Counted from the first letter of the stretch, positions 3,621 through 46,699 are shown. The stretch is DNA of 64,000 nt from an uncultured Thermodesulfobacteriota bacterium (GCA_964543765.1 CAZIZI010000005.1:6121-70120); one strand, 5' to 3'. The notes: generated from the letters alone by a model not told the origin. Program-made: numbers and translations.

Positions 3621-4412
3621 CTATCCTCCTTTTAAAAGGATTCTGGCCTTGAGGGTTAAAGGATATCCGGGTTCTTGATTGAGCATTCGGAAGGATCTAT
3701 TCGCCAACCGTTTTAAGGAAGTGCGGAAGGTTTTGCTTCCCTCAAAATATAAGAACCCTCCTTCTTCTTTCGAGGCCAAAAGCAACTCGGGTTCAAATGG
3801 AATCGCCCCAAGGAGCTTAAGCTTTAAGCCCCTTGGTCTGTGCCACGATTCCTTGTTGAGAACTACCCCTATCGGTTTAATCCCTAATTGTCGGAAAAGG
3901 GTGTTAAGCCTTTTCACCTCAAAAACCGCTCCCCTAGAAGAGTCACTCACAAACAACACTTGAGCCTTTCCCTTGAGAAGTTCGCCCAATGTAAGATGCT
4001 CCTCTCCTATTCCAGGAGGCATATCGATTAACAAAAGCTCAAGATCCCCCCATTGGACTTTATTCAAAAAATGCTGTAAAACCCTGTGCCTTATGGGTCC
4101 CCTCCAGCTCACCGGAGTCCATCGTCGTTCCAAAAAGAGACCAAGCGACAAGACCTTTAAGCCTCTTACCTCCAAAGGTTCAATGTCTTCCTTCAAGGTC
4201 TCAATGCCCAAAGGAGGAATCCCCAGATAAAGGGGAATATCGGGTGAGGAGAGATTTGCATCTAAAATTCCAACCCTTTTTCCTTTCTCTAACCACCTCA
4301 GTGCCAAAAGAAGACTCAAGGTAGTTTTACCTACTCCTCCTTTACCTACAACCAAAAGATAATTCTTTATCTCCAATTCTATGCCTCCAAAAATCTTTTT
4401 GTTTCCCTTCAA
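3621..4412 (-). CDS. MinD/ParA/Mrp-superfamily P-loop ATPase
   Basis: Deviant Walker A VVGKGGVGKTT. No CxxC Fe-S carrier motif is seen. Confidence 0.65.
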   Translation of the reverse strand: MKGNKKIFGGIELEIKNYLLVVGKGGVGKTTLSLLLALRWLEKGKRVGILDANLSSPDIPLYLGIPPLGIETLKEDIEPLEVRGLKVLSLGLFLERRWTPVSWRGPIRHRVLQHFLNKVQWGDLELLLIDMPPGIGEEHLTLGELLKGKAQVLFVSDSSRGAVFEVKRLNTLFRQLGIKPIGVVLNKESWHRPRGLKLKLLGAIPFEPELLLASKEEGGFLYFEGSKTFRTSLKRLANRSFRMLNQEPGYPLTLKARILLKGG

Positions 4413-5330: not shown

Positions 5331-5960
5331 TCAATAAGCCATGATGATCACATCATAACCCAAAAGTCTCAATTTTTCGGCAAATGCGCGAGCTTCTCCT
5401 TCCTTTAGAAAATTCCCTATTCTAACTCGCCAATAAGTTCCGTTTTCCGTCTTAAAGGGCACTATGTAAGGGACAAAGCCTTGGGCTTTTAGCCTATCAT
5501 AAAGGACCTTGGCCTTTTTCTCTTCCGAAAATGCCCCTACTTGAAGGGTATAACCGAAGACCAGAGGCCCTTCCGGAAAACATATCACTTCCACCTTTAC
5601 CCGGGCCACTCCTTCTTCCACCATCCCCAGGGCTTTTGCTGCAGCATAAGACAAATCGATGATCCTTCCCTCCACCAAAGGCCCCCGGTCCTTTATCTTC
5701 ACCAGAACCGACCGGCCGTTCCCCAAATGGGTGACCATCACTAAGGTCCCAAGGGGAAGAAAATTATGAGCGGCACTTAACTCGTTCATGTCAAAGATCT
5801 CACCGCTTGAGGTCGCCCTTCCATGAAAGGCTTCCCCATACCAAGAGGCTAAGCCATACTGGACCTTCTGGATTTGAGGAGGCGGATATATGACCTTTGG
5901 GGCACAAGAGAAACAAAAGAGAAAAACCCAAAAGAGAAAAACCTTAAGAGAGAATCTCAA
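5331..5960 (-). CDS. rlpA: septal ring lytic transglycosylase RlpA (DPBB plus SPOR domains)
   Basis: ASWYGEAFHGRATSSGEIFD...RGPLVEGRIIDLS (DPBB) and a C-terminal SPOR-like domain. Signal peptide present. Confidence 0.8.
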   Translation of the reverse strand: MRFSLKVFLFWVFLFCFSCAPKVIYPPPQIQKVQYGLASWYGEAFHGRATSSGEIFDMNELSAAHNFLPLGTLVMVTHLGNGRSVLVKIKDRGPLVEGRIIDLSYAAAKALGMVEEGVARVKVEVICFPEGPLVFGYTLQVGAFSEEKKAKVLYDRLKAQGFVPYIVPFKTENGTYWRVRIGNFLKEGEARAFAEKLRLLGYDVIIMAY

Positions 5961-6948
5961 CCTTTAAATCTCCCCTGTTTATGGTTTCATCCTTCTGGAA
6001 AACCATCTCGGTCTTTTCAAATAAGGCTTTGAATCTTTTGAAAATCTCGCCTCTGTGGCCATAAAGAAGTGATTCATCCTTGGGGTTTATCCTCACCAAG
6101 GCCCTTTTGGGGTTATCCTGAAGGTAAAGCTTTAACTTATCCAACAAAAGGGCAGATCTCACCAGTTCGCCAAAAGCGGGATGATAGGGACCAACTACGA
6201 GGTTTCTTTCGAGTTCCTCTTCCCTTTGTAAGCCGATCCTTACCACTTGGATTTGAGCCCTTTGAAACTCGTAAAGGGCCTCTTTGGAAAGCTCCACGGC
6301 CTCCCAAAGCTCCAAAGGCTTATAAAGCCCCTCCCGATACCATTTTTCAAGTTCCGTACCTCTTAAGACAAGTGTTGGATAAATCCTGACAAAAGAAGGT
6401 CTCAATTGAATAACCCTTTTCACGGTTTCTTTGAAGGAATAAACCGTTTCTCCTGGAAGTCCTACCATTATCTGGATCCCCAGCTCAAAGCCCCACTCCT
6501 TAATTAGTTCAGAAGCTTTCATGACAGTTTCAACCCCATAGGGTCTTTTACTTAACTTCAACACCTCCGCATCCATAGATTGGACTCCCAATTCTATGGT
6601 CCTTACCTTTCCCCTTTTTAAGAGCTCGAGGATCCTTTCATCGATTAAATCAGGTCTTGTGGAAAGCCTGATAGAATTAATGAGACCCTTTTCAATAAAG
6701 GGATGGACCGAAAAAAGAAGCCTTTCCTGTAAAAAGAAGGGCAACCCCGTAAAGCTTCCACCGAAAAAGGCCACTTGAACTTCTTCCTTTTCTTTAAGTC
6801 TCTCTTTGAGCCATAATTCTATTTCTTCCCTTATCCTCTCAGGAGATGGAACTTGGGGGCTTTTTCCGACGGTTTTTTCCTGGTCACAATAAACACATCG
6901 GATCTTACAACCCAGATTAGGTATGAAGATGGGAATTACCCTTCTCAT
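5944..6948 (-). CDS. radical SAM protein (ELP3/TIGR01212-like, no GNAT domain)
   Basis: IFIPNLGCKIRCVYC contains a CxxxCxxC motif. Confidence 0.6.
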   Translation of the reverse strand: MRRVIPIFIPNLGCKIRCVYCDQEKTVGKSPQVPSPERIREEIELWLKERLKEKEEVQVAFFGGSFTGLPFFLQERLLFSVHPFIEKGLINSIRLSTRPDLIDERILELLKRGKVRTIELGVQSMDAEVLKLSKRPYGVETVMKASELIKEWGFELGIQIMVGLPGETVYSFKETVKRVIQLRPSFVRIYPTLVLRGTELEKWYREGLYKPLELWEAVELSKEALYEFQRAQIQVVRIGLQREEELERNLVVGPYHPAFGELVRSALLLDKLKLYLQDNPKRALVRINPKDESLLYGHRGEIFKRFKALFEKTEMVFQKDETINRGDLKVEILS

Positions 6949-7606
6949 TTAGCTTGGTTAAAGCCTCCTTAGCTGCTTTTTGTTCGGCTTCTTTTTTCGT
7001 TTTTCCTTCGCCTTTCCCCCAAATATGCCCCTTTATACGCACTACAGCCTCAAAGGTCTTTTGGTGATCAGGTCCCTTTTCGGATATGACCTTATAAACG
7101 GGCGTCTCCTTAAAGATTGCCTGGATTAACTCCTGAAGTTGAGTCTTATAATCGGTATGTTTAAGAGAGGGTTCTTTTATAAAATCCTCAAAAAGCCTTC
7201 TTATGATCTTCAAAGCTTCCTCTAAACCTCCATCAAGGTAAATGGCTCCAATTAAGGCCTCAAAGGCACTGGCCAAAACCGAAGGCTTCCCTCTTCCCCC
7301 ATCAAGCTCTTCCCCCTTTCCCAATCTCAAAAACTCAAAAAGCCCAAGTTTATGCGAGATCTCAAAGAGGGTCTCCTCTTTTACCAAATGGGCCCTTCTT
7401 TTGGAGAGTTCCCCCTCCTTGGCATAAGGAAAGGCCTCAAAGAGCAGATGAGTTATACAGACCCCAAGAACCGAATCCCCCAAAAATTCGAGCCTCTCGT
7501 TATGGGGAAAGCCGTAACTCGGATGAGTGAGAGCTTCCCTTAAGAGGGCCTTTTCCTTAAAACTATATCCGAGCCTTTCTTCTAGCTCCTTAAGCTTTTC
7601 GGCCAT
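6917..7606 (-). CDS. rnc: ribonuclease III
   Basis: ERLEFLGDSVLG signature and a C-terminal dsRBD. Confidence 0.9.
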   Translation of the reverse strand: MAEKLKELEERLGYSFKEKALLREALTHPSYGFPHNERLEFLGDSVLGVCITHLLFEAFPYAKEGELSKRRAHLVKEETLFEISHKLGLFEFLRLGKGEELDGGRGKPSVLASAFEALIGAIYLDGGLEEALKIIRRLFEDFIKEPSLKHTDYKTQLQELIQAIFKETPVYKVISEKGPDHQKTFEAVVRIKGHIWGKGEGKTKKEAEQKAAKEALTKLNEKGNSHLHT

Positions 7607-7715
7607 CCGAGTTTAAACTTATAAATTCCGTTACATTAAGTCAAACCGAAAGCCTATCCCCTCACGCTTTACCCTTTGCACTTTAAGTGTTATCTTCAAA
7701 CAAAAGGAGTTGTAA

Positions 7716-8792
7716 ATGAAGAGGGGCGAGGCCCTTTTACCTCTTCATTGGGGTGAGGCTCCCAGGTGGCTTTTCGAAAGGATGGTCAACTTAGGCAGGG
7801 GGATCCTTGAGGTTTTGGTGTTTGAATTTGGTCAAGAAGAGGTTTTGCGGAGGCTTTCGGATCCATTTTGGTTTCAGGCCTTGGGTTGTCTCTTAGGGTT
7901 CGACTGGCATTCAAGCGGATTGACAACGACCGTATGTGGAGCTTTGAAAGAGGCCTTAAAAGGCCGAGAGAAAGAGCTTAGGATTTTTGTAGCAGGTGGA
8001 AAAGGTAAAATGGCTCTTCGGACCCCTGAAGAGATCTCCAGTTATGGAGAAAGGTTTGGAATGGAAGTTAGTGATTTTATAAGGATCAGTCGTCTTGTGG
8101 CCAAGATCGATAATGCGGCTCTTCAGGACGGGTATCACCTTTATCATCACACCTTCTTCTTCACCTCCCAAGGCCACTGGTGTGTGATCCAGCAAGGGAT
8201 GAATCCCGATAATCACTATGCTCGAAGGTACCATTGGTCTTCAGATGAGTTGGAGGATTTTTGTTCCGATCCCCATAAGGCCATATGCTGTGACCAGAGG
8301 ACAAACGCCCTTAACTTGGTAGCTAAAGAAAGTGAAGGGGCAAGAAGGGCTATTGTTGAGATCTGTAACTCTCCTCCTTCTTCAGTTATGAAGGAATTAA
8401 GATCGCTAAAAACCTTGGTGCTTCCTGAGAGACATTATGTCTCTCTTGAAGATCTTTCCGAGGAAAGAATGCAGAAGATCCTTCTTAAGACTTGTGAAAC
8501 TCAACCACAAGGCTTTGAGGAGGTGCTTCTGGTTGAAGGCCTTGGTCCCAAAGCTTTGAGGGCCTTAAGCCTTCTTTCCGAACTTCTTTACGGTGAGCCC
8601 CCGTGTTTTAAGGACCCCGCTCGTTTTAGTTTTGCCCATGGTGGTAAAGATGGAAGGCCTTATCCCGTTAATCGAGTCCTTTACGATATGACCATCGAGG
8701 TCCTAAAGGATTGTCTTTCCCGGGCCAAAATTGGTGACACCGAGAAGCTTAAGGCTTTGAGGAGGCTTGATTCTTGGTATCTCAGATCGTAA
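7716..8792 (+). CDS. DUF763 domain protein (COG1415-like, mostly archaeal family)
   Basis: N-terminal HWGEAPRWLFERMVNLG motif that I recall for DUF763. 358 aa. Confidence 0.55.
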   Translation: MKRGEALLPLHWGEAPRWLFERMVNLGRGILEVLVFEFGQEEVLRRLSDPFWFQALGCLLGFDWHSSGLTTTVCGALKEALKGREKELRIFVAGGKGKMALRTPEEISSYGERFGMEVSDFIRISRLVAKIDNAALQDGYHLYHHTFFFTSQGHWCVIQQGMNPDNHYARRYHWSSDELEDFCSDPHKAICCDQRTNALNLVAKESEGARRAIVEICNSPPSSVMKELRSLKTLVLPERHYVSLEDLSEERMQKILLKTCETQPQGFEEVLLVEGLGPKALRALSLLSELLYGEPPCFKDPARFSFAHGGKDGRPYPVNRVLYDMTIEVLKDCLSRAKIGDTEKLKALRRLDSWYLRS

Positions 8793-8812
8793 GCGAACCC
8801 CTTTCTTGGAGA

Positions 8813-10066
8813 ATGCGTCCTTTGAGTTTTGATGAGTTCGTGGGACAGGAACATCTTTTAGGGGAAAAGGGGCCTTTGAGAAGGATGATAGAGTCCAAAA
8901 GGGTTATTTCGTTTTTGCTTTGGGGGCCTCCCGGCTGTGGGAAGACCACCTTGGGAGAACTTTTTGCCAAGGCCATAAGGGCCCATTTCGTTTACGGAAG
9001 TGCGGTACTTTGGGGTTTGAAAGAAGTAAGAGATGCAATAGTTGAGGCTCAAAAGCGATTAAGAGCCGGACAGAGGACCATACTTTTCCTTGACGAGATC
9101 CATCGGTTTAACCGGGCCCAGCAAGATGCCCTTCTCCCTTGGGTTGAAAAAGGTACCATTATCCTCATAGGTTCAACCATTAATAACCCCTCCTTTGGAA
9201 TTATTCCTTCGCTTTTATCGCGATTAAGGGTTTTTACCCTTCGAGCTTTAAGGGATGATGAGGTTCTTCTTATCTTAAAAAGGGCGCTTTCCGATCCTGA
9301 GAGGGGACTTGGGGCCTTTAAGATTGAACTTGAGGATGGGGTTTTGGAGCTTATTGCCTCTCTTTCTCAGGGTGATGCTCGTTGGGCTTTAAATACGCTG
9401 GAGATGGTTTTCATTTTGGCCGAAGAAAGAAACGGAAAAAAGTTTATAGGGAAAGAAATCGTTCTTCAATCAACTCAGAAACCCCTTCTTTACGATCGGG
9501 AAGGCGAGGAGCATTACAACCTGATAAGCGCCTATCAAAAGTCCATAAGGGGCAGTGATCCCGATGGGGCCATCTACTGGCTTGCGAGAATGCTCGAATC
9601 GGGAGAGGACCCCCTTTATATAGCGAGAAGGATGATCGTATGTGCTGCCGAGGACATAGGCTTGGCCGACCCGATGGCGCTCCTTGTCGCCGTAAGCGCC
9701 CTTCAAGCCTTTCAAATTTTGGGGCAGCCCGAAGGAGAGCTGGCCTTAGCTGAAGCGACCCTTTATCTGGCCACAGCCCCCAAATCCAATTCCGCCATGG
9801 TGGCTCTTGAGAAGGCTCGAGAAGAGGTGAAGGAAAAAGGGGCTATTCCGGTGCCTCTTCATTTGAGAAATGCCCCTACGAAGTTATTAAAGGAATTGGG
9901 CTATGGCAAAGATTACCTTTATCCCCATGATTACAAAGAAGGGTTTGTAGAACAAACATATCTGCCCGAAGGCCTTAAAGGAGGGTATTATCGACCTTCG
10001 GAAAGGGGCTATGAGAAGGAGATTTCTCAGAGGCTTTTAAAGTGGTGGAAGGACAGGTGGAAATGA
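8813..10066 (+). CDS. rarA: replication-associated recombination protein A (AAA+ ATPase RarA/MgsA)
   Basis: WGPPGCGKTTL Walker A, DEIHRFN sensor and MgsA C-terminal domain. Start trimmed to ATG 8813, inside the longer track ORF. Confidence 0.85.
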   Translation: MRPLSFDEFVGQEHLLGEKGPLRRMIESKRVISFLLWGPPGCGKTTLGELFAKAIRAHFVYGSAVLWGLKEVRDAIVEAQKRLRAGQRTILFLDEIHRFNRAQQDALLPWVEKGTIILIGSTINNPSFGIIPSLLSRLRVFTLRALRDDEVLLILKRALSDPERGLGAFKIELEDGVLELIASLSQGDARWALNTLEMVFILAEERNGKKFIGKEIVLQSTQKPLLYDREGEEHYNLISAYQKSIRGSDPDGAIYWLARMLESGEDPLYIARRMIVCAAEDIGLADPMALLVAVSALQAFQILGQPEGELALAEATLYLATAPKSNSAMVALEKAREEVKEKGAIPVPLHLRNAPTKLLKELGYGKDYLYPHDYKEGFVEQTYLPEGLKGGYYRPSERGYEKEISQRLLKWWKDRWK

Positions 10067-12805: not shown

Positions 12806-14827
12806 ATGGTGCGGTTGAAGGGGCTAGTGCTTCCTTTTTTAGCCTTTTTGATCCTTTTCTCCTTAAGACTTTATCAAGCCAATTTTATCTTCAAGGAAAA
12901 AGAGTTTTATTTTTGGGGCAAAAACATTCCCCTGCTTTCTTCTTCTGACGGTTATTACTTTTTGCGCCTTGCCCATCTTTTTAAAGAAGGTTCCTATAAA
13001 GGGAAAGCACCTGATCCCTTGAGGAATGCCCCTGATAATCAACTTAACCCTGATTCCGAAAGGGCCGTGAGGTTTCCCTCGATTCCTCCTCTTATTTCGG
13101 TTCTTTTGGCCTTTTTGTCTTATTTGACGGGGGTTTCTCCCGAGAGGGTTTTTGTGGTTTTTCCATTAATCCCCTTTTTGGGCTCTCTTTTAGCCTTTCC
13201 GCTTTATGGAATAGGGAAGAGGCTTTGGGGAGAGCTATGTGGTTTTGGTATGGCTTTAGGGGGTGGGTTATGTCTTGAGTACGTCATAAGGACCGACCTT
13301 TTGAGGATCGATACTGAAGCAATAGCTTTGGTGTTTTTCTTTGCGGTTATTTATTCCATGTTTTTGCTCCTTGAGGATTTCAATCTGAAAAACCTGATCT
13401 TGTTTAGCATTTTCGTTCATCTTTACCAGTGGTGGTACAGCCACCCAGGTTTACTCTTACCCCTTTTGGTGGCTTACGGTTTGACCTTTTTTTTGGTCGA
13501 AAAATTATCCCTTAAGGAATCGGCAAAAAGAACGCTTATTTTAGCCCTTTTTTCAAATCCCTTAATACTTTTCAACGGGATTTTTAACCTTTTGCAGATG
13601 ATAAGTGGCTATATACCTGGGCTTTTGCCCGAACAATTGGGCTTTATACCTCGTTCGGTTTTTGCTCGCTCAGTAAGCGAACTGCAAAGGCTTCCCATTA
13701 AGGTCGTTCTTTCCATGGTTTCAAGTCATTATGTGATTGGCTTCTTAGGTCTTTTTGGCTTTTTGGTTATTTTTCTTAAAACCAGAAGGCCCCTTTTGAT
13801 CTCCCCTCTTTTTATACTTGGCCTAATGAGCCTTTTTGGAGCGAGGCGTTTTATGATATGGCTTGGCCCCTTTGTAGGGCTTGGCCTTGGGGTTTTGCTT
13901 CAATATTGCTTTGAGGTCTTAAAGGGAAGGTTAAAATTTAATCCCGTACTCATAAAGGTGGCTTTATTGATCTTATTGCTTCTTTCAAGCGTTTCCCCTA
14001 AAAGTCTGACTTTTGTTCCCCTTTGCCCCTACGGGAGGCCCCTTTTGGAAGGAATAAAGGAGCTCGAAAGGATAACTCCGGAAGGAAGTTTCGTATGGTC
14101 CTGGTGGGATTACGGTTATGTTATCTCCCTTGTAGCCAAAAGGCCCGTTTATCATGATGGAGGAAGTTGGGGAGGGCCAAAGAGCATTCTTGTGGCAAGG
14201 TCATTGGCCTTAGATGATCCCGAAAAAGCCTATAACATCATTAACGGCACCACCTCCCTTGGAGAAGAGGGGATAAGGGAGCTTCTTGAAAAGGGGGAAA
14301 GTCCTTCTTCCATAATAAGCCAGATAGAGAACGGGCTTTACAATAAGGAGTTGAAAAGTAAGATTTACCTTCTTTTAACGGGTGATGACATAAGTAAATT
14401 TTTTTGGATCTCCTTTTTTGGAACTTGGGATCCCGAAAGGGAAAAGGCAGAACACCTTTTTTACTTTCCCCTTGGTTTATGCAAGATGAATGAGGAAAGG
14501 ATAAGGTGTCAAAATGGGATTTTTGAGCTTAAAAAAGGGATCTTACAATTAAGGGGAGGGGACGTTATAAAGGTAGGAAGGGTCAAGATGGTTGAACTAG
14601 ATGATAGGGATTTTCCTCAAAAAAGGGAAAACCTGAAAGAAGGGGATGGTTTTTTCCTTATTTTAGTGAAAAAGAAAGACCATCTTTTTGGATGGGTGGC
14701 TCATCCCAAGGTCCAAAGCACCATGTTTCAAAGGCTTTTCTTTGAGGAGGGTGAAGTCGGAAACTTCAAGCTCGTTTTTTCAAATTTCCCTTATCTTCGA
14801 GTTTTTGAGGTAACTGAAAGAAGATGA
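12806..14827 (+). CDS. oligosaccharyltransferase, PglB/STT3 family (N-glycosylation catalytic subunit)
   Basis: About 13 TM helices. SSDGYYFLRLA in the first external loop resembles PglB NDGYAFAEGARD. WWDYGY lies at 14102-14119, followed by HDGGSWGGPKS...SLALDDPEKA, which aligns to PglB VDGGKHLGKD...SLSKDEQAA. Confidence 0.75.
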   Translation: MVRLKGLVLPFLAFLILFSLRLYQANFIFKEKEFYFWGKNIPLLSSSDGYYFLRLAHLFKEGSYKGKAPDPLRNAPDNQLNPDSERAVRFPSIPPLISVLLAFLSYLTGVSPERVFVVFPLIPFLGSLLAFPLYGIGKRLWGELCGFGMALGGGLCLEYVIRTDLLRIDTEAIALVFFFAVIYSMFLLLEDFNLKNLILFSIFVHLYQWWYSHPGLLLPLLVAYGLTFFLVEKLSLKESAKRTLILALFSNPLILFNGIFNLLQMISGYIPGLLPEQLGFIPRSVFARSVSELQRLPIKVVLSMVSSHYVIGFLGLFGFLVIFLKTRRPLLISPLFILGLMSLFGARRFMIWLGPFVGLGLGVLLQYCFEVLKGRLKFNPVLIKVALLILLLLSSVSPKSLTFVPLCPYGRPLLEGIKELERITPEGSFVWSWWDYGYVISLVAKRPVYHDGGSWGGPKSILVARSLALDDPEKAYNIINGTTSLGEEGIRELLEKGESPSSIISQIENGLYNKELKSKIYLLLTGDDISKFFWISFFGTWDPEREKAEHLFYFPLGLCKMNEERIRCQNGIFELKKGILQLRGGDVIKVGRVKMVELDDRDFPQKRENLKEGDGFFLILVKKKDHLFGWVAHPKVQSTMFQRLFFEEGEVGNFKLVFSNFPYLRVFEVTERR

Positions 14828-22614: not shown

Positions 22615-23807
22615 TGAGGGTTTTGCTTTTCGCTGGGAAAGGAGGAGTTGGTAAGACCAGTATCGCTGCCTCTACCGGTCTTCTGGCCGCAGAGCGCGGA
22701 TATAAGACCATTGTAGTATCCCTGGATACGGCCCATAATCTTTCGGATGTCTTTGAAGTGGGAGAAAACCTCTTTGATGTTAAGGGGGAACCGGTTGAGA
22801 TTTTTCCCAATCTATGGATTCAGGAGATCAACATCCAGGAGGAGATAAGGCGCCATTGGAAAGAGGTTCACGGCTATATTACCGCTCTATTCAGGGCTTC
22901 GGGGGTAAAGGAGATACTGGCCGAGGAGCTTGCGGTTTTGCCGGGCATGGAGGAGGTGAGCGGGCTTCTTTATCTTAACACCTACGCCAAGAAGGGAAGT
23001 TTCGACGTGGTGATTCTTGATTGTGCTCCTACTGGTGAGGCCATAAGGTTTGTGAGTTTACCCACCATCTTCGAGTGGTATATGAAGAAGTTCTTTAACC
23101 TCGAAAGAAAGATCGCTAAAGTTATAGGGCCTTTTGTGGAAAAGTTTTACAATGTCCCCATGCCTGAAGAGAGTTGTTTTGATGCGGTAGAGGAACTCTT
23201 CATGAGGCTCGATGGGGTTGAGAAGCTTTTAAACGATGCGCGGATAACTTCCGTTAGGCTTGTCACCAATCCTGAAAAAATCGTGGTGAAGGAGACCCAA
23301 AGGGCCTTTCTTTACTTCACGCTCTATGGGTTATGTGTGGACGGTGTGGTGGTCAACAAGGTGTTTCCCAAGGAACTGGAGGGTGAGTTTATAAAGGGGT
23401 GGCAGCTCCTTCAGGATAGATACCTGGAGGAGATAGAGACCTACTTTGCCCCTCTTCCGGTCTTTAAGGTTCCCCTTTACGAGGATGAGGTGAGTGGGAT
23501 TGAACGCTTAAAGAGGCTCGGGAAAGACCTTTACGGGGAGAATGACCCGATTCAAGTCTTCCGAAGTGAATCTCCCTTCAATTTCTACAAGGAGGATGGA
23601 CTTTATAAACTTTCGTTGAAAATGCCCTTTGTCACCCGGGATAAGATTCATCTGAGTAAAAGAGGGGACGAGCTCATAATCGAAGTGGGTGTGTTCAAGA
23701 GACACGTGATACTCCCCAAAACGATAGCCTCTTTAAGCCCTCGTAAGGCAAGATTCGAAGGCGATAATTTGGTCATTTCCTTTGAGGAGGGCGAAAATGC
23801 AATATAA
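22614..23807 (+). CDS. ArsA/GET3-family ATPase with a C-terminal Hsp20/CS-like domain
   Basis: AGKGGVGKTS P-loop and DTAHNLSDVF GET3/ArsA signature. C-terminal beta-rich region resembles alpha-crystallin/CS. TAATG overlap with lon. Confidence 0.7.
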   Translation: MRVLLFAGKGGVGKTSIAASTGLLAAERGYKTIVVSLDTAHNLSDVFEVGENLFDVKGEPVEIFPNLWIQEINIQEEIRRHWKEVHGYITALFRASGVKEILAEELAVLPGMEEVSGLLYLNTYAKKGSFDVVILDCAPTGEAIRFVSLPTIFEWYMKKFFNLERKIAKVIGPFVEKFYNVPMPEESCFDAVEELFMRLDGVEKLLNDARITSVRLVTNPEKIVVKETQRAFLYFTLYGLCVDGVVVNKVFPKELEGEFIKGWQLLQDRYLEEIETYFAPLPVFKVPLYEDEVSGIERLKRLGKDLYGENDPIQVFRSESPFNFYKEDGLYKLSLKMPFVTRDKIHLSKRGDELIIEVGVFKRHVILPKTIASLSPRKARFEGDNLVISFEEGENAI

Positions 23808-23988
23808 ATGCCCAATGGCCCAACTGTTTGAGAGGATAGAAAGATTAAGGTCTCCACGTTCCCCTTTTTGGGAACATATGAGAAAGGCGAAAATAGAGGT
23901 TCTGGAAGCCCTTAAGAGCCTTCTCGAGGAGAAGATCTCCAAACTAAAAGAAGAAGGGGAAAAGCTGAAAAAAATAGAAGTGGAATAG
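23797..23988 (+). CDS. small hypothetical protein (63 aa, predicted coiled-coil)
   Basis: ATG at 23797 overlaps the arsA-like gene end by 11 nt. K/E-rich helical sequence. No family recognised. Confidence 0.3.
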   Translation: MQYKCPMAQLFERIERLRSPRSPFWEHMRKAKIEVLEALKSLLEEKISKLKEEGEKLKKIEVE

Positions 23989-23992
23989 GACC

Positions 23993-24712
23993 TTGAAAAA
24001 AGCGGTCATCATTCCCGCAAGGTACGCTTCTTCGCGTCTTCCAGGAAAGCCATTACGCCTTCTAAAAGGAAAACCCCTTGTTCAGTATGCTTATGAAATA
24101 GCCAAAAATACAAGCGCCCATATTGTGCTTGTGGCAACCGATGACAAGAGGATCCTCGAAGCCGTTAAGTCCTTTGGAGGCGAAGCGGTTCTAACATCTT
24201 CGGATCATCCTTCGGGAAGTGATCGGGTGGCAGAAGTAGTTAGAGGTATGGAAGTGGACGTGGTTGTGAATCTTCAGTGCGATGAGCCACTTCTTGACCC
24301 CCAATTGATAGATGCCCTATTTGAGGCCTTTAAAAACCAAAAAGTGGAGATAGCTACCCTAATAGGTCCCCTTTCCCACCAGGAGTGGATCGATCCGAAT
24401 GTGGTCAAGGTGGTGAGAGATAAAGAAGGATTTGCCCTTTACTTTTCCCGTGCCCCCATTCCTTATCCCCGAGACGGAGGGGAAGTAAAGGAAGGACTTT
24501 ACTGGCGACATATAGGCGTATACGCTTATAGGAAAGAAACACTTCTCAAGATAACTTCACTTCCTCCTTCACCTCTTGAACTTGAAGAAAAATTAGAGCA
24601 ATTAAGGTTTCTTGAAAACGGCTTCAAAATATTCACCGTTCCTTCCATTTACAGATCGCCCTCCGTGGATACGGAGGACGATCTGAGGAAGGTAATGGAG
24701 CTTTTGCCCTAA
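23993..24712 (+). CDS. kdsB: 3-deoxy-manno-octulosonate cytidylyltransferase (CMP-KDO synthetase)
   Basis: IIPARYASSRLPGKPL...VATDD...SGSDR...NLQCDEP motifs. Confidence 0.85.
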   Translation: MKKAVIIPARYASSRLPGKPLRLLKGKPLVQYAYEIAKNTSAHIVLVATDDKRILEAVKSFGGEAVLTSSDHPSGSDRVAEVVRGMEVDVVVNLQCDEPLLDPQLIDALFEAFKNQKVEIATLIGPLSHQEWIDPNVVKVVRDKEGFALYFSRAPIPYPRDGGEVKEGLYWRHIGVYAYRKETLLKITSLPPSPLELEEKLEQLRFLENGFKIFTVPSIYRSPSVDTEDDLRKVMELLP

Positions 24713-25494
24713 ACGCCGGTATACCCCAATCTCTGCGAAGCCTTAAGCCCCATTTCCTTGAGGAGGGGCACTATTTCGTTCTCTATCCTCTCATCGGAGA
24801 GTCTGAAACTTGGGGCTTGAAGGGATATCGCTGCAACGACCCTTTTTGTGTAATCCCTTACTGGCACCGCTACACACCTTACTCCCTCTTCGTACTCTTC
24901 ATTATCTATTGCATATCCCTTTTCTCTAATTTCCTCCAGATGTTTCAGGAAACTCTCCTTATTGGTTATCGTATTAGGAGTGAAGGCCTTTACGTTCTTC
25001 CAATCGATGAGCTTTTCCACCTCTGATTGGGACTTATAGGCCAATTGGACCTTTCCGGAAGCCGAAGCATAAGCAGGAATCCGCCACCCGGCCCTACAAG
25101 CCACTTTCACCACCTGATCCGCTTCTATGACGTCAAGATAAACTATCCATTGATCCCTTAGAACTGCAAGCCCAACGTTTTCGTTGGTTTTCTCCACAAT
25201 TTCCTCGAGGATCGGCCTTATTTGTTTTAAAAGATTACTCTGTTTTAAATAATTTTGAGCAAGTTCAACAATCTTAAGCCCCAAGCGATAGTTTTCGGTT
25301 TCCTTGTTTTGTTCCACGTAACCCCGAGTTTCAAGAGTGGCCAAAAGCCGGAAGACGTTGTTCTTATGAAGATTAAGCCTCCGGCTCAATTCGCTTACCC
25401 CAAGTTCATCCCCCTCTTTTCCAAGTTCCTCCAAAACGGCCAAAGCATGAGCCACGGACTTTATGGTATAACTTACTTTCTCACGTCTTCCCAT
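24709..25494 (-). CDS. IclR-family transcriptional regulator
   Basis: N-terminal wHTH (LGVSELSRRLNLHKNNVFRLLATL) and C-terminal IclR effector domain. Confidence 0.8.
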   Translation of the reverse strand: MGRREKVSYTIKSVAHALAVLEELGKEGDELGVSELSRRLNLHKNNVFRLLATLETRGYVEQNKETENYRLGLKIVELAQNYLKQSNLLKQIRPILEEIVEKTNENVGLAVLRDQWIVYLDVIEADQVVKVACRAGWRIPAYASASGKVQLAYKSQSEVEKLIDWKNVKAFTPNTITNKESFLKHLEEIREKGYAIDNEEYEEGVRCVAVPVRDYTKRVVAAISLQAPSFRLSDERIENEIVPLLKEMGLKASQRLGYTGV

Positions 25495-25736
25495 ATCTCC
25501 CTCCTATTAATATAACGTTATACACATTAATTAAAAATATTTATTGTATCCCACTACTTCAAGTAAAATCTTTAAAAAAATCGCCTAACATTGTTTACCA
25601 AGTTTAAAAACCAAACTCTTATTTTTTTGATAATACAAAACTTAATTTTGTGCAATAAGGAGTTTTACCTCTTGGCAAGGGGAAAAAAGTTGTGCTAAAA
25701 AGTAATGGGGTTTTTAAATAAGAATGGAGGGGGCGG
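25495..25736. promoter_or_regulatory. AT-rich divergent promoter region between the IclR gene and the radical SAM operon; perfect 12-bp palindrome TATAACGTTATA at 25511-25522
   Basis: 242-nt intergenic region at about 25% GC. The palindrome lies within an ATTAAT...ATTAAT context, directly upstream of the iclR start. Confidence 0.5.
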
Positions 25737-27164
25737 ATGGAAATTTTAGAGAAGATAAAGGATTATGCCTATCGGAAGGCCATTGAGCAGATCGTTTCGC
25801 TTTTGAGGAAGGTGGATGACCAGAAGATTTTGCAGATGCTTTCCATAGCCAAGATGTTAACCGGGGATCCTGAAGTAAAAAGAGCTATAGAGGGTATAAA
25901 AAAGTTTATTCAAAGCGATCATCCGGCCAAGCAGCTTATTTATCGCATAGTTAACTATCTCTCTTATGAAAACTGCGTGAAAATCTTTTGGACCCTTTTT
26001 AACAACGGTTGGTTTATAGGGGGTAAGAAGAGGGATGCCTTTGAGAAGGAGAACGGCTTCAGGCCTCCTTTTGTTCTTATCTTGAGCCCTACTATGAGGT
26101 GCAATCTGCGTTGTAAGGGTTGTTACACGCTCGGTTATGGCCGCCAGTATGAGCTTGAGTACGAACTGGTGGATAGGATCCTTCGGGAGTGTGAGGACTT
26201 AGGCATTTACTTTGTTACGATCCTTGGAGGAGAGCCCCTTTTGTATCCGCATTTGTTCAGAATGATGGAAGAACATTCAGACATATTTTTCCAGGTTTAT
26301 ACCAATGGGACCTTGGTTAACAAAGAGGTTGCCAAGAGGTTTTCCGAGCTTGGAAACGTGCTTGTGGTGATAAGTGTTGAAGGTGATGAAGAAGAGACGG
26401 ACAGTTGGCGAGGAAAGGGCGTTTACAAGAGGATCCTTCAGGCTTTTGATCACTTGAGGGATGAGAGGGTTCTAATCGGAACTTCTTCGACGGTGACGCG
26501 TTATAATGTGGAGAAGGTCTCCTCTTTCGAATGGGTTGATCAAATGATCGAGCTTGGGTCTTTCTTGCAGAATTATTTCCTATATATTCCCGTTAACGGG
26601 AAAGCTGATTTTAACCTTATGGTCACTCCTGAACAAAGGGATCTTTTGCGAAGAAGGGTGATTGCCATAAGGAACACGAGGCCGATTTTTATCATGGATT
26701 TCTGGAACGATGGTCCGTATGTTGGAGGGTGTATAGCTGCGGGTAGACGTTATTTTCACATTAATGCCAAAGGAGACGTTGAACCGTGTGTTTATACCCA
26801 TATTGCAGTAGATAACATCTGTAACACCACTATAGCTCAGGCTTTAAACAGCAAATTGTTCCGCGCCATAAGGGCAAGACAGCCTCATAATCCCAATCAT
26901 CTTAGGCCTTGTATGATCATAGATAACCCCCACATTTTGCGGGAGATCATAAAGGAAACTAGCCCTTATTTCACCCATCCAGGGGCGGAGGAGATTTATA
27001 CCGAAAAGGCACAGCTTATGGATGAGTATGCGGCCCAATGGGGTAAATATGCGGATAATATATGGGCTACTGAGTATAAGGATGGTAAGCGTATAGTCGA
27101 TTATCTGCCTGAAGGAGAAAACGTTCGTCCCTCTTTTTGTGCCCAAGTTGGCGCTATTCAGTGA
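25737..27164 (+). CDS. radical SAM protein with a C-terminal SPASM/twitch-like auxiliary cluster domain and an N-terminal helical extension of about 100 aa
   Basis: TMRCNLRCKGCY (CxxxCxxC); C-terminal GGCIAAGRRYFHINAKGDVEPC...C...C. Confidence 0.7.
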   Translation: MEILEKIKDYAYRKAIEQIVSLLRKVDDQKILQMLSIAKMLTGDPEVKRAIEGIKKFIQSDHPAKQLIYRIVNYLSYENCVKIFWTLFNNGWFIGGKKRDAFEKENGFRPPFVLILSPTMRCNLRCKGCYTLGYGRQYELEYELVDRILRECEDLGIYFVTILGGEPLLYPHLFRMMEEHSDIFFQVYTNGTLVNKEVAKRFSELGNVLVVISVEGDEEETDSWRGKGVYKRILQAFDHLRDERVLIGTSSTVTRYNVEKVSSFEWVDQMIELGSFLQNYFLYIPVNGKADFNLMVTPEQRDLLRRRVIAIRNTRPIFIMDFWNDGPYVGGCIAAGRRYFHINAKGDVEPCVYTHIAVDNICNTTIAQALNSKLFRAIRARQPHNPNHLRPCMIIDNPHILREIIKETSPYFTHPGAEEIYTEKAQLMDEYAAQWGKYADNIWATEYKDGKRIVDYLPEGENVRPSFCAQVGAIQ

Positions 27165-28570
27165 AAGTCCTCTTAATCCATCCTCACTCAAAGGCTTTGG
27201 GGTTCGGGGATATGATAAGGGCCGAACCCCTGGGTCTTGAATCGATTGCCGGTAATTTAAGAGGGCATTTGGTAAAGATACTTGACTTAAGGATAGAAGG
27301 AAGAAGAGGGCTTGAGAAGGCGCTTTCTTCTTTTAGGCCGGAGGTGGTGGGTATAAGTTGCCTTTGGACCTGTGATCACGTGAAGGTTCAGGAGTTAGCC
27401 CTTTTTATTAAAAAGAAATTACCCAAAAGTTTCCTCCTAATAGGAGGAATCCATGCTTCTCTTTGCTACGAGCAATTTAAAGAACCAATAGATGCTGTAA
27501 TCGTAGGGGAGGGGGAAGAGACCCTTAGGGAGCTTCTCGAGGCTATCGAATCGGGTAAGGACGGGCCTTTGCCCGGAGTATTTAGACCATCTGATCCAAA
27601 AAAATTCCGCTCAAGGAGATTCATAGAGAACCTCGACGGTTTACCTTTTCCCTTAAGGGTCAGATACAAAGGAGTAGGCTATCACCTTGGATTTCAACGG
27701 CCTTTAGGCCTTGTTGAAACATCAAGAGGGTGCCCATTTCGGTGTTCCTTTTGTGCAGTTTGGCCATTTTTCAATGGCACTTACAGGGAAAAAAGCCCCG
27801 AAAGGGTTGTAGAAGAGCTTTTAATCCTTAGCGATCCCTTCGTGCTCTTTGTGGATGATAATTTTTTGGCCGATCCTGAAAGGAGTATGGAGATCGCTTC
27901 TTTGATTAAAAGGAAAGGCCTTAAAAAGTATTATACCTTTCAAGCGAGAAGCGATTCTATTGTGAAGTATAAGGATCTGCTAAAACTGTGGAAGGAGATA
28001 GGACTTAAAGCGGTCTTTGTGGGATTTGAAGGCATAAGCGATGAGGAACTGTTAAGGCTTAATAAACGATTACGGGTTTCTACAAATGATCAAGCAATAA
28101 AGGTCCTCGAGGAACTTGGGATAGAACTTTGGGCCTCCTTTATAGTGGAGCCCTCTTTTAATCTTGAAGAATTTAAAAACCTTAGGACCTACGTAAAGTC
28201 TCGATCGATAAAAAACGCCTCTTTCTCGGTCCTAACCCCTCTTCCGGGCACAAGGCTTTTTGAAGAACTGAAGGATAAGATTATTTCGAATAATTACGAA
28301 CTGTTTGACATTGCCCATTCCGTATTGCCCACTGCCCTTCCCCTAGAGAAGTTTTACGAGGAGTTCTGTTTCCTTTATCAAGAGGTTTATTCGGCAGGAG
28401 AGTTGATAAAAGAGGGTTTTAGGGCGTGGATCCAAGGGTTTCCCCTCAAAGGGCTTTTAAAGATGCTCCTTTCAGCGAAAAGGCTTTCATCCCCTTCTTT
28501 TTACCTTAAGGCTTACGACCTTAATACTCTTCGATCACTATCTTTTCTTTCGCCAGATCGAGCCTCTTAA
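27161..28570 (+). CDS. B12-binding (cobalamin-dependent) radical SAM protein
   Basis: N-terminal VKVLLIHP B12-binding domain; SRGCPFRCSFCAV radical SAM motif. GTGA start/stop overlap with the upstream rSAM gene; the track ORF starts earlier, in the overlap. Confidence 0.7.
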   Translation: MKVLLIHPHSKALGFGDMIRAEPLGLESIAGNLRGHLVKILDLRIEGRRGLEKALSSFRPEVVGISCLWTCDHVKVQELALFIKKKLPKSFLLIGGIHASLCYEQFKEPIDAVIVGEGEETLRELLEAIESGKDGPLPGVFRPSDPKKFRSRRFIENLDGLPFPLRVRYKGVGYHLGFQRPLGLVETSRGCPFRCSFCAVWPFFNGTYREKSPERVVEELLILSDPFVLFVDDNFLADPERSMEIASLIKRKGLKKYYTFQARSDSIVKYKDLLKLWKEIGLKAVFVGFEGISDEELLRLNKRLRVSTNDQAIKVLEELGIELWASFIVEPSFNLEEFKNLRTYVKSRSIKNASFSVLTPLPGTRLFEELKDKIISNNYELFDIAHSVLPTALPLEKFYEEFCFLYQEVYSAGELIKEGFRAWIQGFPLKGLLKMLLSAKRLSSPSFYLKAYDLNTLRSLSFLSPDRAS

Positions 28571-28709
28571 AGCGCCCTTTTACGGTTCTTTGTTCGCCGA
28601 AAATATTGACCATAAAGATCTTCCCATTTTCGGGTTTTATCAAGTAAACGGATTCAAGTACCAGTTCTTCCTTTCCGTCCTTTTCAACGTAAACGTTTGC
28701 TTCACACAT
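28521..28709 (-). CDS. CooT-family nickel-binding protein
   Basis: 62 aa starting MC (Cys2 is the Ni ligand). MCEANVYVEKDGKEEL...DLAKEKIVIEE parallels R. rubrum CooT MCMAKVVLTKADG...DLRSGVISLIEE. Confidence 0.6.
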   Translation of the reverse strand: MCEANVYVEKDGKEELVLESVYLIKPENGKIFMVNIFGEQRTVKGRFKRLDLAKEKIVIEEY

Positions 28710-29127
28710 TTACGATCTCCTTGAGCATTTGTAATAACTCTTCCACATAATGTGGAAGAGGTTCTTTTCTCAATCCCACAAGGAATACCTTTTCTTGGGT
28801 TAATGGAAGCAACAACTTAATGGCCCCGCAGGAGGCTATAGCCTCGGCCATCCTTGGGGTCACTTCCCCTAACATGGAATTGGCAAGTACTATGCTTAAA
28901 GGGCCTATTACTATGTCGGCCTCTTTCACCGTATGAATGATCGCATTCTCTCCCGTTGCTCCCTTGTTAGCCCTGGCTTTCATCATGGCCATTGTGGCGA
29001 CCGCGTTTGTACCAAGAGCCACTATCTCTATCTTTTCTTCAAAATTTTCCCTTAACTTCTTCACGATAAGACTTCCTATCCCTCCTCCCTGGCCATCGAT
29101 TACGCAGATCCTTGGCCTTTCCTTCAC
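28702..29127 (-). CDS. DUF3842-like protein, commonly adjacent to cooT
   Basis: 141 aa; ICVIDGQGGGIGS N-terminal motif. Family assignment is from memory. Confidence 0.45.
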   Translation of the reverse strand: MKERPRICVIDGQGGGIGSLIVKKLRENFEEKIEIVALGTNAVATMAMMKARANKGATGENAIIHTVKEADIVIGPLSIVLANSMLGEVTPRMAEAIASCGAIKLLLPLTQEKVFLVGLRKEPLPHYVEELLQMLKEIVNV

Positions 29128-29128
29128 C

Positions 29129-29803
29129 TCACGACCTCCTTTTTTGAATCACACCTCTCATGGGCACGAAAACCACCCCTCCAAGGTCTTCCACTTCAAA
29201 CTCTTTTCCCTTCTTCTTTACCAGGATTAGGTCTTGATGATAAGGCATTTCCCCTAAGGGGAGGACCATTCTTCCTCCATCTTTCAGTTGATCGATTAAT
29301 GGTTCAGGTATCCGAGGGGCAGCACAAGTTATAATTATCCGATCAAAGGGGGCCTCTTCGGGTAACCCGAAGAACCCATCCCCTATCTTTATGTGGATGT
29401 TATTGTAACCCAGTTCTTCCAACAACTTCCTAGCCCTTTCAGCCAGACTTTTTTCAAGCTCTATTGAGAAGACCTCCTTGGCCAACTCCCCTAAAATGGC
29501 CGCTTGATAGCCGGATCCAGTCCCTACCTCAAGCACCTTTTCGTCGCCTTTTAAATCCAAAGCTTGAGTCATCAAGGCGATTATATAAGGTTGAGAAATT
29601 GTCTGACCTTCTCCTATTGGGAGGGGACGATCTTCGTATGAGAACTCTCGGTATTCTAAAGGCACAAACAAATGCCTTGGTACTTTCCTCATCGCTTCAA
29701 GGACCCTCGGGTCTTTTATACCACGGGCCTCGATTTGATACCTTACCATGGCCTCTCTTTCTTCACGAAATTGGTCATTTTTAGGGTCAAACCTTAAAGG
29801 CAT
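29129..29803 (-). CDS. pcm: protein-L-isoaspartate O-methyltransferase
   Basis: TISQPYIIALM and LEVGTGSGYQAAIL SAM-binding motifs. Confidence 0.85.
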   Translation of the reverse strand: MPLRFDPKNDQFREEREAMVRYQIEARGIKDPRVLEAMRKVPRHLFVPLEYREFSYEDRPLPIGEGQTISQPYIIALMTQALDLKGDEKVLEVGTGSGYQAAILGELAKEVFSIELEKSLAERARKLLEELGYNNIHIKIGDGFFGLPEEAPFDRIIITCAAPRIPEPLIDQLKDGGRMVLPLGEMPYHQDLILVKKKGKEFEVEDLGGVVFVPMRGVIQKRRS

Positions 29804-45797: not shown

Positions 45798-46699
45798 CCA
45801 GATAAGGCAAGCTTAGAAATCTCTAAAGCCAATTGAAGGGCCTTAAGGCCTTCTTTGGCAGTAACAGGAGGTGATGATCCCTCTTGGATGCTTCTCACAA
45901 ACGCCTCTATTTCCTCTTTTAATGCATCCTTTTTTTTACCCCCTTTTTTGATAAGTCCATTCTCTTTAAAAACGAAGCTATGGTTTAAAAGATCCAAAGT
46001 TAACTCACCTTGTTCCTTTATAAAATGGATGTTCCTCACTTTTTGTTGAGCTACCCTGCTTGAGGAAAGCCTTATCTCCACCCCTTCTTCCGTTTCGATG
46101 ATCGCCTGGGCTTCGTCAATAAAAGGAGTTTTCACCCTTTTACCCCATGCCTTAAGTCTTTTAGGCTTTACTCCCACTAGATACTCCAAAAGATCAAGAT
46201 CATGGATCATTAGGTCCAATATCACATCTATGTCGAAATTCCTCTCTGTCCAAGGCGAATGCCTTATCACCTCCACCCTTTTTATGTCCTTTAAGAAGTC
46301 CCAAATGCCTTCCAATGCCCCATTGAACCTTTCAAGATGACCTATTTGTAGTATCAAATTACGGCTTTTTGAGATCTCCTCAAGATGCAGGGCCTCTTCA
46401 AGATTTGAAGTCATGGGTTTCTCTAAAAGTACATGCGTCCCATTGAGGAGGAAATCCTTGGCTATTTTATAGTGAACGGAAGTGGGAGTGGCAATACTTA
46501 CGGCCTCCACCTCCCCCAAAAGTTCTCGGTAATCAAAAAATGGCCTACTTCCTACCTTCCGAGCCACCTCTTGGGCCCTTTCGGGCAAAATATCCACAAC
46601 TCCTACCAGCTCCACTTGGGGCATGGAAGCAAACTTTTGAGCATGAAGTTCTCCCCATCTTCCTACCCCAATTACCGCTATCTTTAGCTTTTCCTTCAT
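45794..46699 (-). CDS. Gfo/Idh/MocA-family NAD-dependent oxidoreductase (candidate UDP-GlcNAc 3-dehydrogenase GnnA)
   Basis: KIAVIGVGRWG Rossmann motif and EKP motif. Embedded between lpxB and fabZ-lpxA. Confidence 0.6.
   Translation of the reverse strand: MKEKLKIAVIGVGRWGELHAQKFASMPQVELVGVVDILPERAQEVARKVGSRPFFDYRELLGEVEAVSIATPTSVHYKIAKDFLLNGTHVLLEKPMTSNLEEALHLEEISKSRNLILQIGHLERFNGALEGIWDFLKDIKRVEVIRHSPWTERNFDIDVILDLMIHDLDLLEYLVGVKPKRLKAWGKRVKTPFIDEAQAIIETEEGVEIRLSSSRVAQQKVRNIHFIKEQGELTLDLLNHSFVFKENGLIKKGGKKKDALKEEIEAFVRSIQEGSSPPVTAKEGLKALQLALEISKLALSG

Follow-up and report, generated by a model that had tools for sequence, protein, structure and literature searches.

We analysed a 64,000-nucleotide stretch of DNA from an uncultured Thermodesulfobacteriota bacterium (GCA_964543765.1, CAZIZI010000005.1:6121–70120), referred to here as the window, and describe a two-gene operon that encodes two radical S-adenosylmethionine (SAM) enzymes and faces a divergently transcribed gene of an IclR-family regulator. 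The host is an uncultured heat-loving relative of sulfate reducers, and the closest genome records of its lineage are hot-spring and Guaymas-type metagenome-assembled genomes (MAGs). Metagenome contigs from JGI carry identical copies of gene 1, the first gene of the operon, and a 94%-identical relative is located on a 1.6-Mb contig. The two genes and the parts of their products, counted from the first nucleotide of the window, are:

25737–27164, + strand: gene 1, a radical SAM enzyme of 475 residues resembling membrane-spanning lipid synthase (Mss)
25737–26060, + strand: N-terminal five-helix domain of gene 1, approximately residues 1–108, without a Pfam family
26100–26123, + strand: radical SAM cluster motif C122-N-L-R-C126-K-G-C129 of gene 1, which fits CNxxCxGC
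26730–26912, + strand: twitch-type auxiliary-cluster region of gene 1, C332-X13-G346-X4-C351 (DVEPC) ... RPC392
27161–27164, + strand: GTGA overlap of the gene 1 stop and gene 2 start codons, read from the sequence
27161–28570, + strand: gene 2, a class B cobalamin-binding radical SAM enzyme of 469 residues, HpnR-like, with a GTG start
27224–27538, + strand: B12-binding domain of gene 2, residues 22–126
27731–27754, + strand: motif C191-X3-C195-X2-C198 of gene 2, the cysteines of which are invariant in the alignment

Gene 1 and gene 2 are real genes rather than chance open reading frames (ORFs), since the databases contain thousands of their relatives: more than 3,500 of gene 1 (E ≤ 1e-10; counted, among the scored candidates, as clusters at 90% identity) and more than 1,600 of gene 2 (E ≤ 1e-10). 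The GTGA overlap, which had been proposed in an initial annotation of the window, is confirmed in the sequence, and the same junction is present in the related loci L010, L011, L013, and L014 (L numbers denote the loci and contigs compared). Judging by this arrangement, translation of gene 2 is coupled to that of gene 1.

The gene 1 protein matches the Pfam family Radical_SAM with 83 bits (residues 117–246) and, weakly, SPASM with 32 bits (residues 332–388). Its AlphaFold2 model has a predicted local distance difference test (pLDDT) score of 84.6 and a predicted template modelling (pTM) score of 0.87. Five predicted helices (residues 2–22, 28–41, 45–59, 63–74, and 77–106) precede the first strand of the core, in agreement with the N-terminal helical extension of about 100 residues that had been annotated. 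The helical domain contains the conserved aromatic and hydrophobic residues F84, L87, F88, W92, and F93. The CX3CX2C motif was found in 100 of 108 full-length representatives, and nearly all of these have an extension of approximately 90–160 residues ahead of it. The family alignment comprises 111 sequences: gene 1, two paralogues, and these 108 representatives. The cluster-binding motif C122-N-L-R-C126-K-G-C129 is invariant in another alignment, and CN..C.GC occurs in 120 of 120 orthologues and 157 of 157 proteins from a sister clade. In the 111-sequence alignment, the only other conserved cysteines are C332 (111 of 111), C351 (109 of 111), and C392 (109 of 111). The segment C332-X13-G-X4-C351 corresponds to the first half of the SPASM/twitch signature. 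Because only three cysteines are conserved in the C-terminal part, gene 1 is expected to hold one auxiliary Fe-S site of the twitch type and not a seven-cysteine SPASM domain; the SPASM/twitch cluster of the initial annotation is thus retained as regards the twitch and dropped as regards the full SPASM. The family is very large and uniform, with 575 clusters at 50% identity (E ≤ 1e-30). No cluster of this 50%-identity representative library is more than 48% identical to gene 1, though another database contains thousands of relatives with 60–94% identity; the cluster of gene 1 itself is apparently missing from the library, which was used solely for distant family structure.

Gene 1 probably belongs to the Mss family. 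Mss, a radical SAM enzyme, has been shown to join the tails of fatty acids in Thermoanaerobacter ethanolicus (WP_129545148.1) and Thermotoga maritima (Tmari_0825 / WP_004080829.1) (Sahonero-Canavesi et al., Sci Adv 2022), and a preprint supplement describes six conserved Mss blocks (10.1101/2022.04.21.487849). Gene 1 carries every described block, in order, when compared with this verbal description rather than by alignment. The described elements and their counterparts in gene 1 are:

CNxxCxGC: CNLRCKGC
GGE: present
N/S and Gly-rich with Arg: GNVLVVISVEG...WRGKG
P-Q-R: TPEQR
Asp beside Phe: DFW
Y/H/N among glycines: GRRYFHINAKG
VEPC: DVEPC
Three Pro and a Cys: QPHNPNHLRPCMIIDNP

The same supplement places a hydrophobic N-terminal region of Mss close to the active site (10.1101/2022.04.21.487849), and the helical domain of gene 1, with its conserved F84, L87, F88, W92, and F93, fits this region. 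The single three-cysteine auxiliary site of gene 1 constrains the C–C coupling mechanism proposed for Mss.

The taxonomic spread of gene 1 relatives provides the second argument for Mss. A search seeded with a Firmicutes relative of gene 1 retrieved a sister clade, and gene 1 is 37–45% identical (median 40%, E ≤ 5e-105, approximately residues 4–455) to all 157 of its full-length proteins. The BLAST alignments to the Firmicutes clade begin at residues 4–9 or thereabouts, in the helical domain. The sister clade includes Moorella/Neomoorella humiferrea and sulfitireducens, Thermanaeromonas toyohensis, Desulfofundulus spp., Desulfotomaculum copahuensis, Halothermothrix orenii, Koleobacter (Thermosediminibacterales), Thermoanaerobacterales MAGs, Halanaerobiales, Atribacterota, and Cloacimonas. 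Mss homologues have been reported from the same groups, and additionally from deltaproteobacteria, Spirochaetes, and candidate phyla. The published Mss homologues were delimited at E ≤ 1e-50, at least 30% identity, and at least 400 residues, and the identities and E-values given above for the sister clade serve as a proxy for such a comparison with the proven Mss proteins. The Mss of T. ethanolicus is annotated plainly as 'radical SAM protein', as are the sister-clade proteins. The initial annotation assigned the operon to an unknown pathway; with its Mss blocks and its taxonomic distribution, gene 1 is probably not an enzyme of an unknown kind. The likeness of gene 1 to Mss, by block descriptions and proxy homologues, goes part of the way towards clear orthology to a characterised enzyme, named there as the finding that would overturn it.

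Other families were compared with gene 1 as well. In NCBIfam, gene 1 matches generic NirJ, AhbD, and mycofactocin-type models with at most 81 bits, against cut-offs of 265–650. Sequence searches of the PDB give low-scoring SkfB, SuiB, and CteB, and Foldseek searches with the gene 1 model give generic SPASM/twitch enzymes. A comparison with Tes/GDGT-MAS had been suggested, and the sequence, profile, and fold searches found no specific similarity of gene 1 to it: neither the single sequence nor the family profile matched it in the PDB at E ≤ 1, and it ranks 45th in Foldseek, with a TM score of 0.38 and 14% identity. Gms, a C–C-forming radical SAM enzyme of archaeal lipids, was ruled out as an identity of gene 1, which has C332, C351, and C392 only and scores 68 bits, against a cut-off of 500, with TIGR04545 (AhbD) over residues 119–291. 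Gene 1 has a helical extension of ~108 residues; that of Gms is ~100 residues long and of the COG4001 type.

Gene 2 is, by its domains, a class B cobalamin-dependent radical SAM enzyme, as had been annotated. The B12-binding domain (PF02310, 62 bits, residues 22–126) and the radical SAM core (PF04055, 70 bits) with its CX3CX2C motif are both present. The best NCBIfam match is HpnR, with 290.6 bits (E = 1.8e-86, residues 1–403), followed by BchE with 154 bits, and the remaining families score below 106 bits. The likeness to HpnR, a comparison that the initial annotation had suggested, holds at the superfamily level; membership in HpnR or HpnP was rejected on score, 290.6 bits against a cut-off of 650. 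Among solved structures, there are only remote matches, to OxsB, TokK, and CysS. The most economical reading is that gene 2 would be a C-methylase of unactivated carbon, acting on a hydrophobic substrate shared with its Mss-like partner. This reading parallels archaeal Gms–Gmm, in which the methylase prefers the product of the C–C-forming enzyme. Cobamide for gene 2 is plausibly on hand, since a CobD-like aminotransferase gene and CobT (DBI_PRT, 440 bits), which serve lower-ligand attachment, are located at 58681–61082 (+ strand) in the same window.

The region between the operon and the regulator gene contains candidate control elements. The IclR gene and the AT-rich region that it faces lie where they had been annotated:

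24709–25494, − strand: IclR-family regulator of 261 residues, divergent from the operon; Pfam IclR_C 172 bits, HTH_IclR 55 bits
25495–25736: divergent control region, 242 nt, AT-rich
25511–25522: perfect 12-bp palindrome TATAACGTTATA, a candidate IclR operator at 17 nt from the start codon of iclR
25672–25699, + strand: promoter-like block TTGGCA-16 nt-GCTAAA, preceded by TGT, located approximately 40 nt ahead of the ATG of gene 1
25726–25733: ribosome-binding site of gene 1, GGAGGGGG

The alignment of ten related intergenic regions contains two conserved blocks. L001, L006, and L010 have the palindrome TATAACGTTATA without change, and L009 and L011 nearly so, despite diverging flanks. The promoter-like block is kept in L001, L006, and L009–L012, with GATAAA or GCTAAA as the −10 element. 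A consensus scan for promoters and terminators, which performed no better than on shuffled sequences, did not call the TTGGCA block. A sigma-54 promoter was also sought in this spacer, and its GG-N10-GC element is absent, here as in the rest of the clade of the window. Given its position and the conservation of the palindrome, IclR probably controls the operon through this site. The IclR protein reaches none of the equivalog cut-offs in NCBIfam, and hence its effector is not assignable by family.

The candidate regulator of gene 1 differs between lineages. Among the 80 loci compared, IclR is syntenic with gene 1 solely in the small clade of the window. In approximately 26 loci, a sigma-54-dependent NtrC-type regulator is encoded close to the orthologue of gene 1, in most cases immediately upstream and on the same strand, and often together with a HisKA_7TM-GAF histidine kinase and a 100-residue Nitro_FeMo-Co (NifX-like) protein. 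Examples of these upstream regulatory genes, from loci L019–L079, are L065 4486–6603, L051 12126–13487, and L040 9653–9949. Of the 19 loci examined for it, 18 have a GG-N10-GC sigma-54 element in the stretch that separates the NtrC-type regulator from gene 1. Since either IclR, in the clade of the window, or a sigma-54/NtrC system, in others, accompanies it, gene 1 appears to be regulated and not constitutive in all lineages. The Nitro_FeMo-Co protein of about 100 residues precedes gene 1 in eight loci and is its only recurrent small neighbour. The idea taken from this neighbour, that gene 1 could be a split NifB, was dropped, as no NifB model is among the NCBIfam matches.

The distribution of the pair was followed in the genomic surroundings of gene 1 relatives, 80 loci that were read for the genes of the window; approximately 77 of them carry an orthologue. 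The orthologues are 58–66% identical to gene 1, are widespread in Thermodesulfobacteriota MAGs, and are mostly without gene 2. Gene 2 lies directly downstream of gene 1 solely in the clade of the window (L009–L011 and L013–L017). The order gene 1, gene 2 is kept by nine loci of the clade in the genome scan and by two more contigs of the clade in a metagenome scan. The closest relatives of gene 2 outside the clade, on metagenome contigs L089/L090 (45% identity), L097 (45%), and L101 (44%), adjoin gene-1-like paralogues that are 33–50% identical to gene 1 and have the same motifs. The gene order differs among them: the methylase is first in L089, is flanked on both sides in L097, and follows the synthase in L101. 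No further genes are common to these contigs. In L022, a different B12 radical SAM gene begins 76 bp downstream of the gene 1 orthologue. The B12 radical SAM genes in the vicinity of gene 1 in L082 (BzaD, 5 kb away), L019, and L074 were judged unrelated or uninformative. The one in L019 lies between two lipopolysaccharide heptosyltransferase genes (5787–9522, − strand), 1.7 kb from the gene 1 orthologue.

We put at about even the chance that the operon carries out a regulated C–C coupling of lipid tails followed by B12-dependent C-methylation. The gene anatomy, families, motif matches, neighbourhood statistics, and conserved non-coding blocks are observed here, whereas what the enzymes act on, the two chemistries, and the role of IclR are inferred, the mechanism from homology and gene context. 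In this scheme, gene 1 would be a member or a close sister of the Mss family, and its helical domain would hold acyl or alkyl tails with its conserved aromatic residues. By analogy with Mss, gene 1 would take hydrogen from two fatty chains at their tail ends and link the chains by a C(sp3)–C(sp3) bond, which would give a membrane-spanning lipid of the diabolic-acid type. Gene 2 may then introduce methyl branches at unactivated carbons in the chains of these lipids, much as Gmm methylates the product of Gms. Expression would be conditional, through IclR and the palindrome here, and elsewhere through the sigma-54 promoter under the 7TM-GAF kinase and NtrC-type regulator. The initial annotation had preferred lipid tailoring over a peptide that is made ribosomally and altered post-translationally (RiPP), and lipids are where the evidence now points.

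Neighbours of Mss-like genes elsewhere bear on this proposal. In Halothermothrix orenii (L175, CP001098, 7001–11866), a cultured species of Halanaerobiales, the Mss-like gene is followed by two HGD-D genes and a BcrAD_BadFG activase gene. A homologous trio is located divergently beside the gene 1 orthologue in the uncultured MAGs L026 (93–3871) and L033 (2324–8692), with identities of 38% and 30% for the HGD-D proteins and 55% for the activase, and L033 encodes a second Mss-like paralogue besides the gene 1 orthologue. NCBIfam provides no assignment of the trio to a characterised dehydratase or reductase. By domain composition, the plasmalogen and ether-lipid enzymes PlsA and Ger belong to the HGD-D/activase superfamily. 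Ger is described in the Mss paper as a modified PlsA. It is possible that the Mss-like gene, the two HGD-D genes, and the activase gene form a conserved cluster for lipid coupling and ether formation. In addition, a DAGK-type lipid kinase gene adjoins gene 1 in three loci, and genes similar to long-chain acyl-CoA ligases do so in two.

Several observations weigh against coupling and methylation of lipid tails by the operon. The placement of gene 1 in Mss draws on a verbal motif description, taxonomy, and proxy homologues instead of proven Mss sequences, and the elements CNxxC and G-x4-C with V-x-PC are common across SPASM/twitch enzymes generally. The 64-kb window contains no Ger/PlsA-like, HGD-D, activase, or other ether-lipid gene. 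Most gene 1 neighbourhoods consist of unrelated, variable housekeeping genes, and clustering of the neighbourhoods of the ~77 loci did not bring out any one pathway context conserved among them. In four loci, HemL is a neighbour of gene 1, joined in three of these (L029, L031, and L048) by a gene similar to the siroheme decarboxylase AhbA/B. Gene 2 appears dispensable, as L012 and L020 have the same synteny of KdsB, IclR, gene 1, CooT, DUF3842, and PCMT without it. Gene 2 also diverges faster than gene 1 (67% versus 88% identity in L010, 55% versus 71% in L016), and most of its homologues with less than 43% identity have no Mss-like neighbour, many of the contigs in question being short. Because of the clade restriction of gene 2, its absence from L012 and L020, and its faster divergence, gene 1 is best seen as the conserved core and gene 2 as an accessory. 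The pair of enzymes in the initial annotation stands as an operon in the clade of the window and does not stand as an obligate pair.

The absence of gene 2 from L012 and L020 and its rapid divergence are also what favours an incidental adjacency, in which gene 1 would be a conserved stand-alone enzyme, of the Mss type or another, and gene 2 a mobile accessory methylase with an unrelated substrate that had inserted beside it in this clade. The occurrence of gene 1 without gene 2 in most of the ~77 orthologue loci points the same way, as do gene 2 homologues with 43–48% identity (L091/L092, L093, L096, and L100), which, like those below 43%, have no gene-1-like neighbour. Against it, the GTGA coupling is retained by several clade members, HpnR-like and Mss-like genes are again adjacent, in differing orders, in three other types of contig, and L022 adds another B12 gene. 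Since the adjacency recurs where the proteins are only 33–50% (gene-1-like) and 44–45% (methylases) identical, its origin by chance is unlikely for these two families, and we regard an unrelated substrate of gene 2 as unlikely overall.

The HemL and AhbA/B-like neighbours could point to a modification of a cofactor or tetrapyrrole, where gene 1 would act on a siroheme or heme intermediate like NirJ, AhbC, or AhbD, and gene 2 on a tetrapyrrole or cobamide like BchE or BzaD. The top NCBIfam models for gene 1 are indeed NirJ2, NirJ, NirJ1, and AhbD (68–81 bits), BchE is the second-best family for gene 2, the Nitro_FeMo-Co protein precedes gene 1 in eight loci, and the window contains cobamide genes. 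However, the gene 1 scores are six to eight times under the cut-offs (500–650 bits) and reflect the generic radical SAM core only, and gene 1 is without the seven-cysteine SPASM domain of the Ahb and NirJ enzymes. Only a few of the ~77 loci have HemL and AhbA/B as neighbours, in convergent orientation, and gene 2 scores almost twice as high with HpnR (290 bits) as with BchE. The motif, taxon, and HGD-D evidence favours Mss, and a tetrapyrrole or cofactor substrate seems quite improbable to us.

A third explanation keeps the lipid substrate and changes the reaction: gene 1 would bridge a spanning lipid in mid-chain, giving an H-shaped lipid, and gene 2 would methylate the bridged product, as in archaeal Gms–Gmm. 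The architecture is the same, with a radical SAM enzyme that has an N-terminal extension of ~100 residues beside a B12 radical SAM methylase, and a Black Sea study reported 'Gms homologues' in 84 of 262 Desulfobacterota MAGs. Yet Gms is AhbD-like (36% identity, E = 7e-79) with 7–8 SPASM cysteines, whereas gene 1 has three C-terminal cysteines and an AhbD score of 68 bits. Bridging also requires that a Tes or Mss enzyme has already made a spanning lipid, and no other such gene was seen in the window; we consider this reaction very improbable.

Least credible is a RiPP or protein maturation, with gene 1 as a cross-linking enzyme comparable to SuiB or to those of sactipeptides and ranthipeptides, and gene 2 as the C-methylase of the same peptide or protein: the closest solved structures and sequences of gene 1 are the RiPP maturases SkfB, SuiB, and CteB, plus anSME, RiPP clusters often contain B12 radical SAM C-methylases, and gene 2 weakly matches ApyD and TIGR03975, but the likeness is confined to the generic core at 14–22% identity, the N-terminus of gene 1 is all-helical, with no PqqD-like RiPP recognition element and no Pfam match, gene 1 is at least 58% identical across the phylum and single-copy, unlike RiPP maturases, no protease or transporter gene lies nearby, inspection of ORFs in and around the operon found no credible precursor-like small ORF, as the initial annotation had already noted, and the ~77 loci have no conserved precursor-like small neighbour.

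The genes around the operon are mostly of a housekeeping type, with Lon, ArsA, and KdsB upstream and CooT-like, DUF3842, and PCMT genes downstream. The immediate neighbours and further genes in the window are:

23782–23988, + strand: ORF of 63–68 residues between the gene of an ArsA-like ATPase and kdsB; Pfam AF_1253 in metagenome annotation; kept in all close relatives
23993–24712: kdsB, the end of which is overlapped by the iclR stop codon
28521–28709, − strand: CooT-like ORF of 62 residues, Pfam CooT in the contig annotation; convergent with gene 2 and overlapping its 3' end by 50 nt
28702–29127: DUF3842
29129–29803: PCMT
2115–3044, 3621–4412, and 5944–6948, all − strand: two radical SAM genes, one of them with Radical_SAM_C, and an Mrp/NUBPL-type Fe-S transfer ATPase gene, 19–23 kb upstream without an obvious operon link
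12806–14827, + strand: STT3/PglB-like oligosaccharyltransferase, 673 residues
40722–51748: lipid A and outer-membrane cluster with LpxK, KdtA, MsbA, LpxB, a GFO/IDH oxidoreductase, LpxD, and BamA
46696–47916, − strand: ORF of 406 residues inside the lipid A cluster, with a FabA/FabZ-like dehydratase domain and an LpxA-type acyltransferase in one protein

The CooT-like, DUF3842, and PCMT genes are syntenic in all loci of the clade, including the two without gene 2. The oligosaccharyltransferase suggests a bacterial capacity for protein N-glycosylation.

[quoted passage not shown] The literature searched describes no chain methylase of bacterial spanning lipids; Mss, which couples the chains, and Ger, which forms the ethers, are the only enzymes identified there. 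The HpnR-like enzymes beside Mss-type genes (gene 2, L089, L097, and L101) might be the missing chain C-methylases of these lipids, an idea that we advance with considerable doubt. Extra methyl branches are seen in brGDGT-type lipids from anoxic environments, namely the penta- and hexamethylated forms and those called 'overly branched'. If the idea is true, it would provide a genetic handle on the methylation signal of brGDGT palaeothermometry and on its control by IclR or a sigma-54 two-component system. The adjacency of Mss-like and B12 methylase genes, recurring in several lineages, is a directly testable candidate for the missing methylation step, and the regulators of gene 1 could reveal the environmental signal that drives lipid remodelling.

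Among the closest known systems, Mss resembles gene 1. Both are radical SAM proteins of approximately 450–480 residues with a hydrophobic N-terminus, encoded by stand-alone genes in anaerobes with the same spread over phyla. They differ in that the Thermodesulfobacteriota proteins branch apart from the Firmicutes clade, to which they are ~40% identical, and in that gene 1 is under apparent IclR or sigma-54 control and in an operon with a B12 radical SAM methylase gene. An Mss-type gene 1 is of a known kind, homologues having already been noted in deltaproteobacteria, whereas its coupling to an HpnR-like methylase and its putative control by IclR are a variant of which we found no description in the literature searched, either as an Mss operon with a B12 radical SAM methylase or as Mss under IclR. 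HpnR itself (TIGR04367, hopanoid C-3 methylase) has the same B12-binding and radical SAM architecture as gene 2, and its substrate is a lipid with unactivated carbon. Positions 407–490 of the HpnR model are, in contrast, unmatched by gene 2, the neighbours of which are Mss-like genes and not hpn genes; the window contains no hopanoid genes.

Tes/GDGT-MAS (PDB: 7TOM) is, like gene 1, a radical SAM enzyme with an auxiliary cluster, and the tail coupling that it catalyses is the reaction type proposed for Mss; gene 1 has neither its rubredoxin domain nor its second auxiliary cluster. The archaeal Gms–Gmm system (Garcia et al., PNAS 2024; Li et al. 2024) resembles the operon as a whole, since a lipid C–C-forming radical SAM enzyme with an extension of ~100 residues is encoded beside a cobalamin radical SAM chain methylase. 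Gms is AhbD-like and has two auxiliary clusters with 7–8 cysteines, whereas gene 1 has one three-cysteine site, and the methylases differ too, Gmm resembling MoeK5 and gene 2 HpnR. The substrates of the archaeal enzymes are isoprenoid, and those proposed here for gene 1 and gene 2 would be based on fatty acids.

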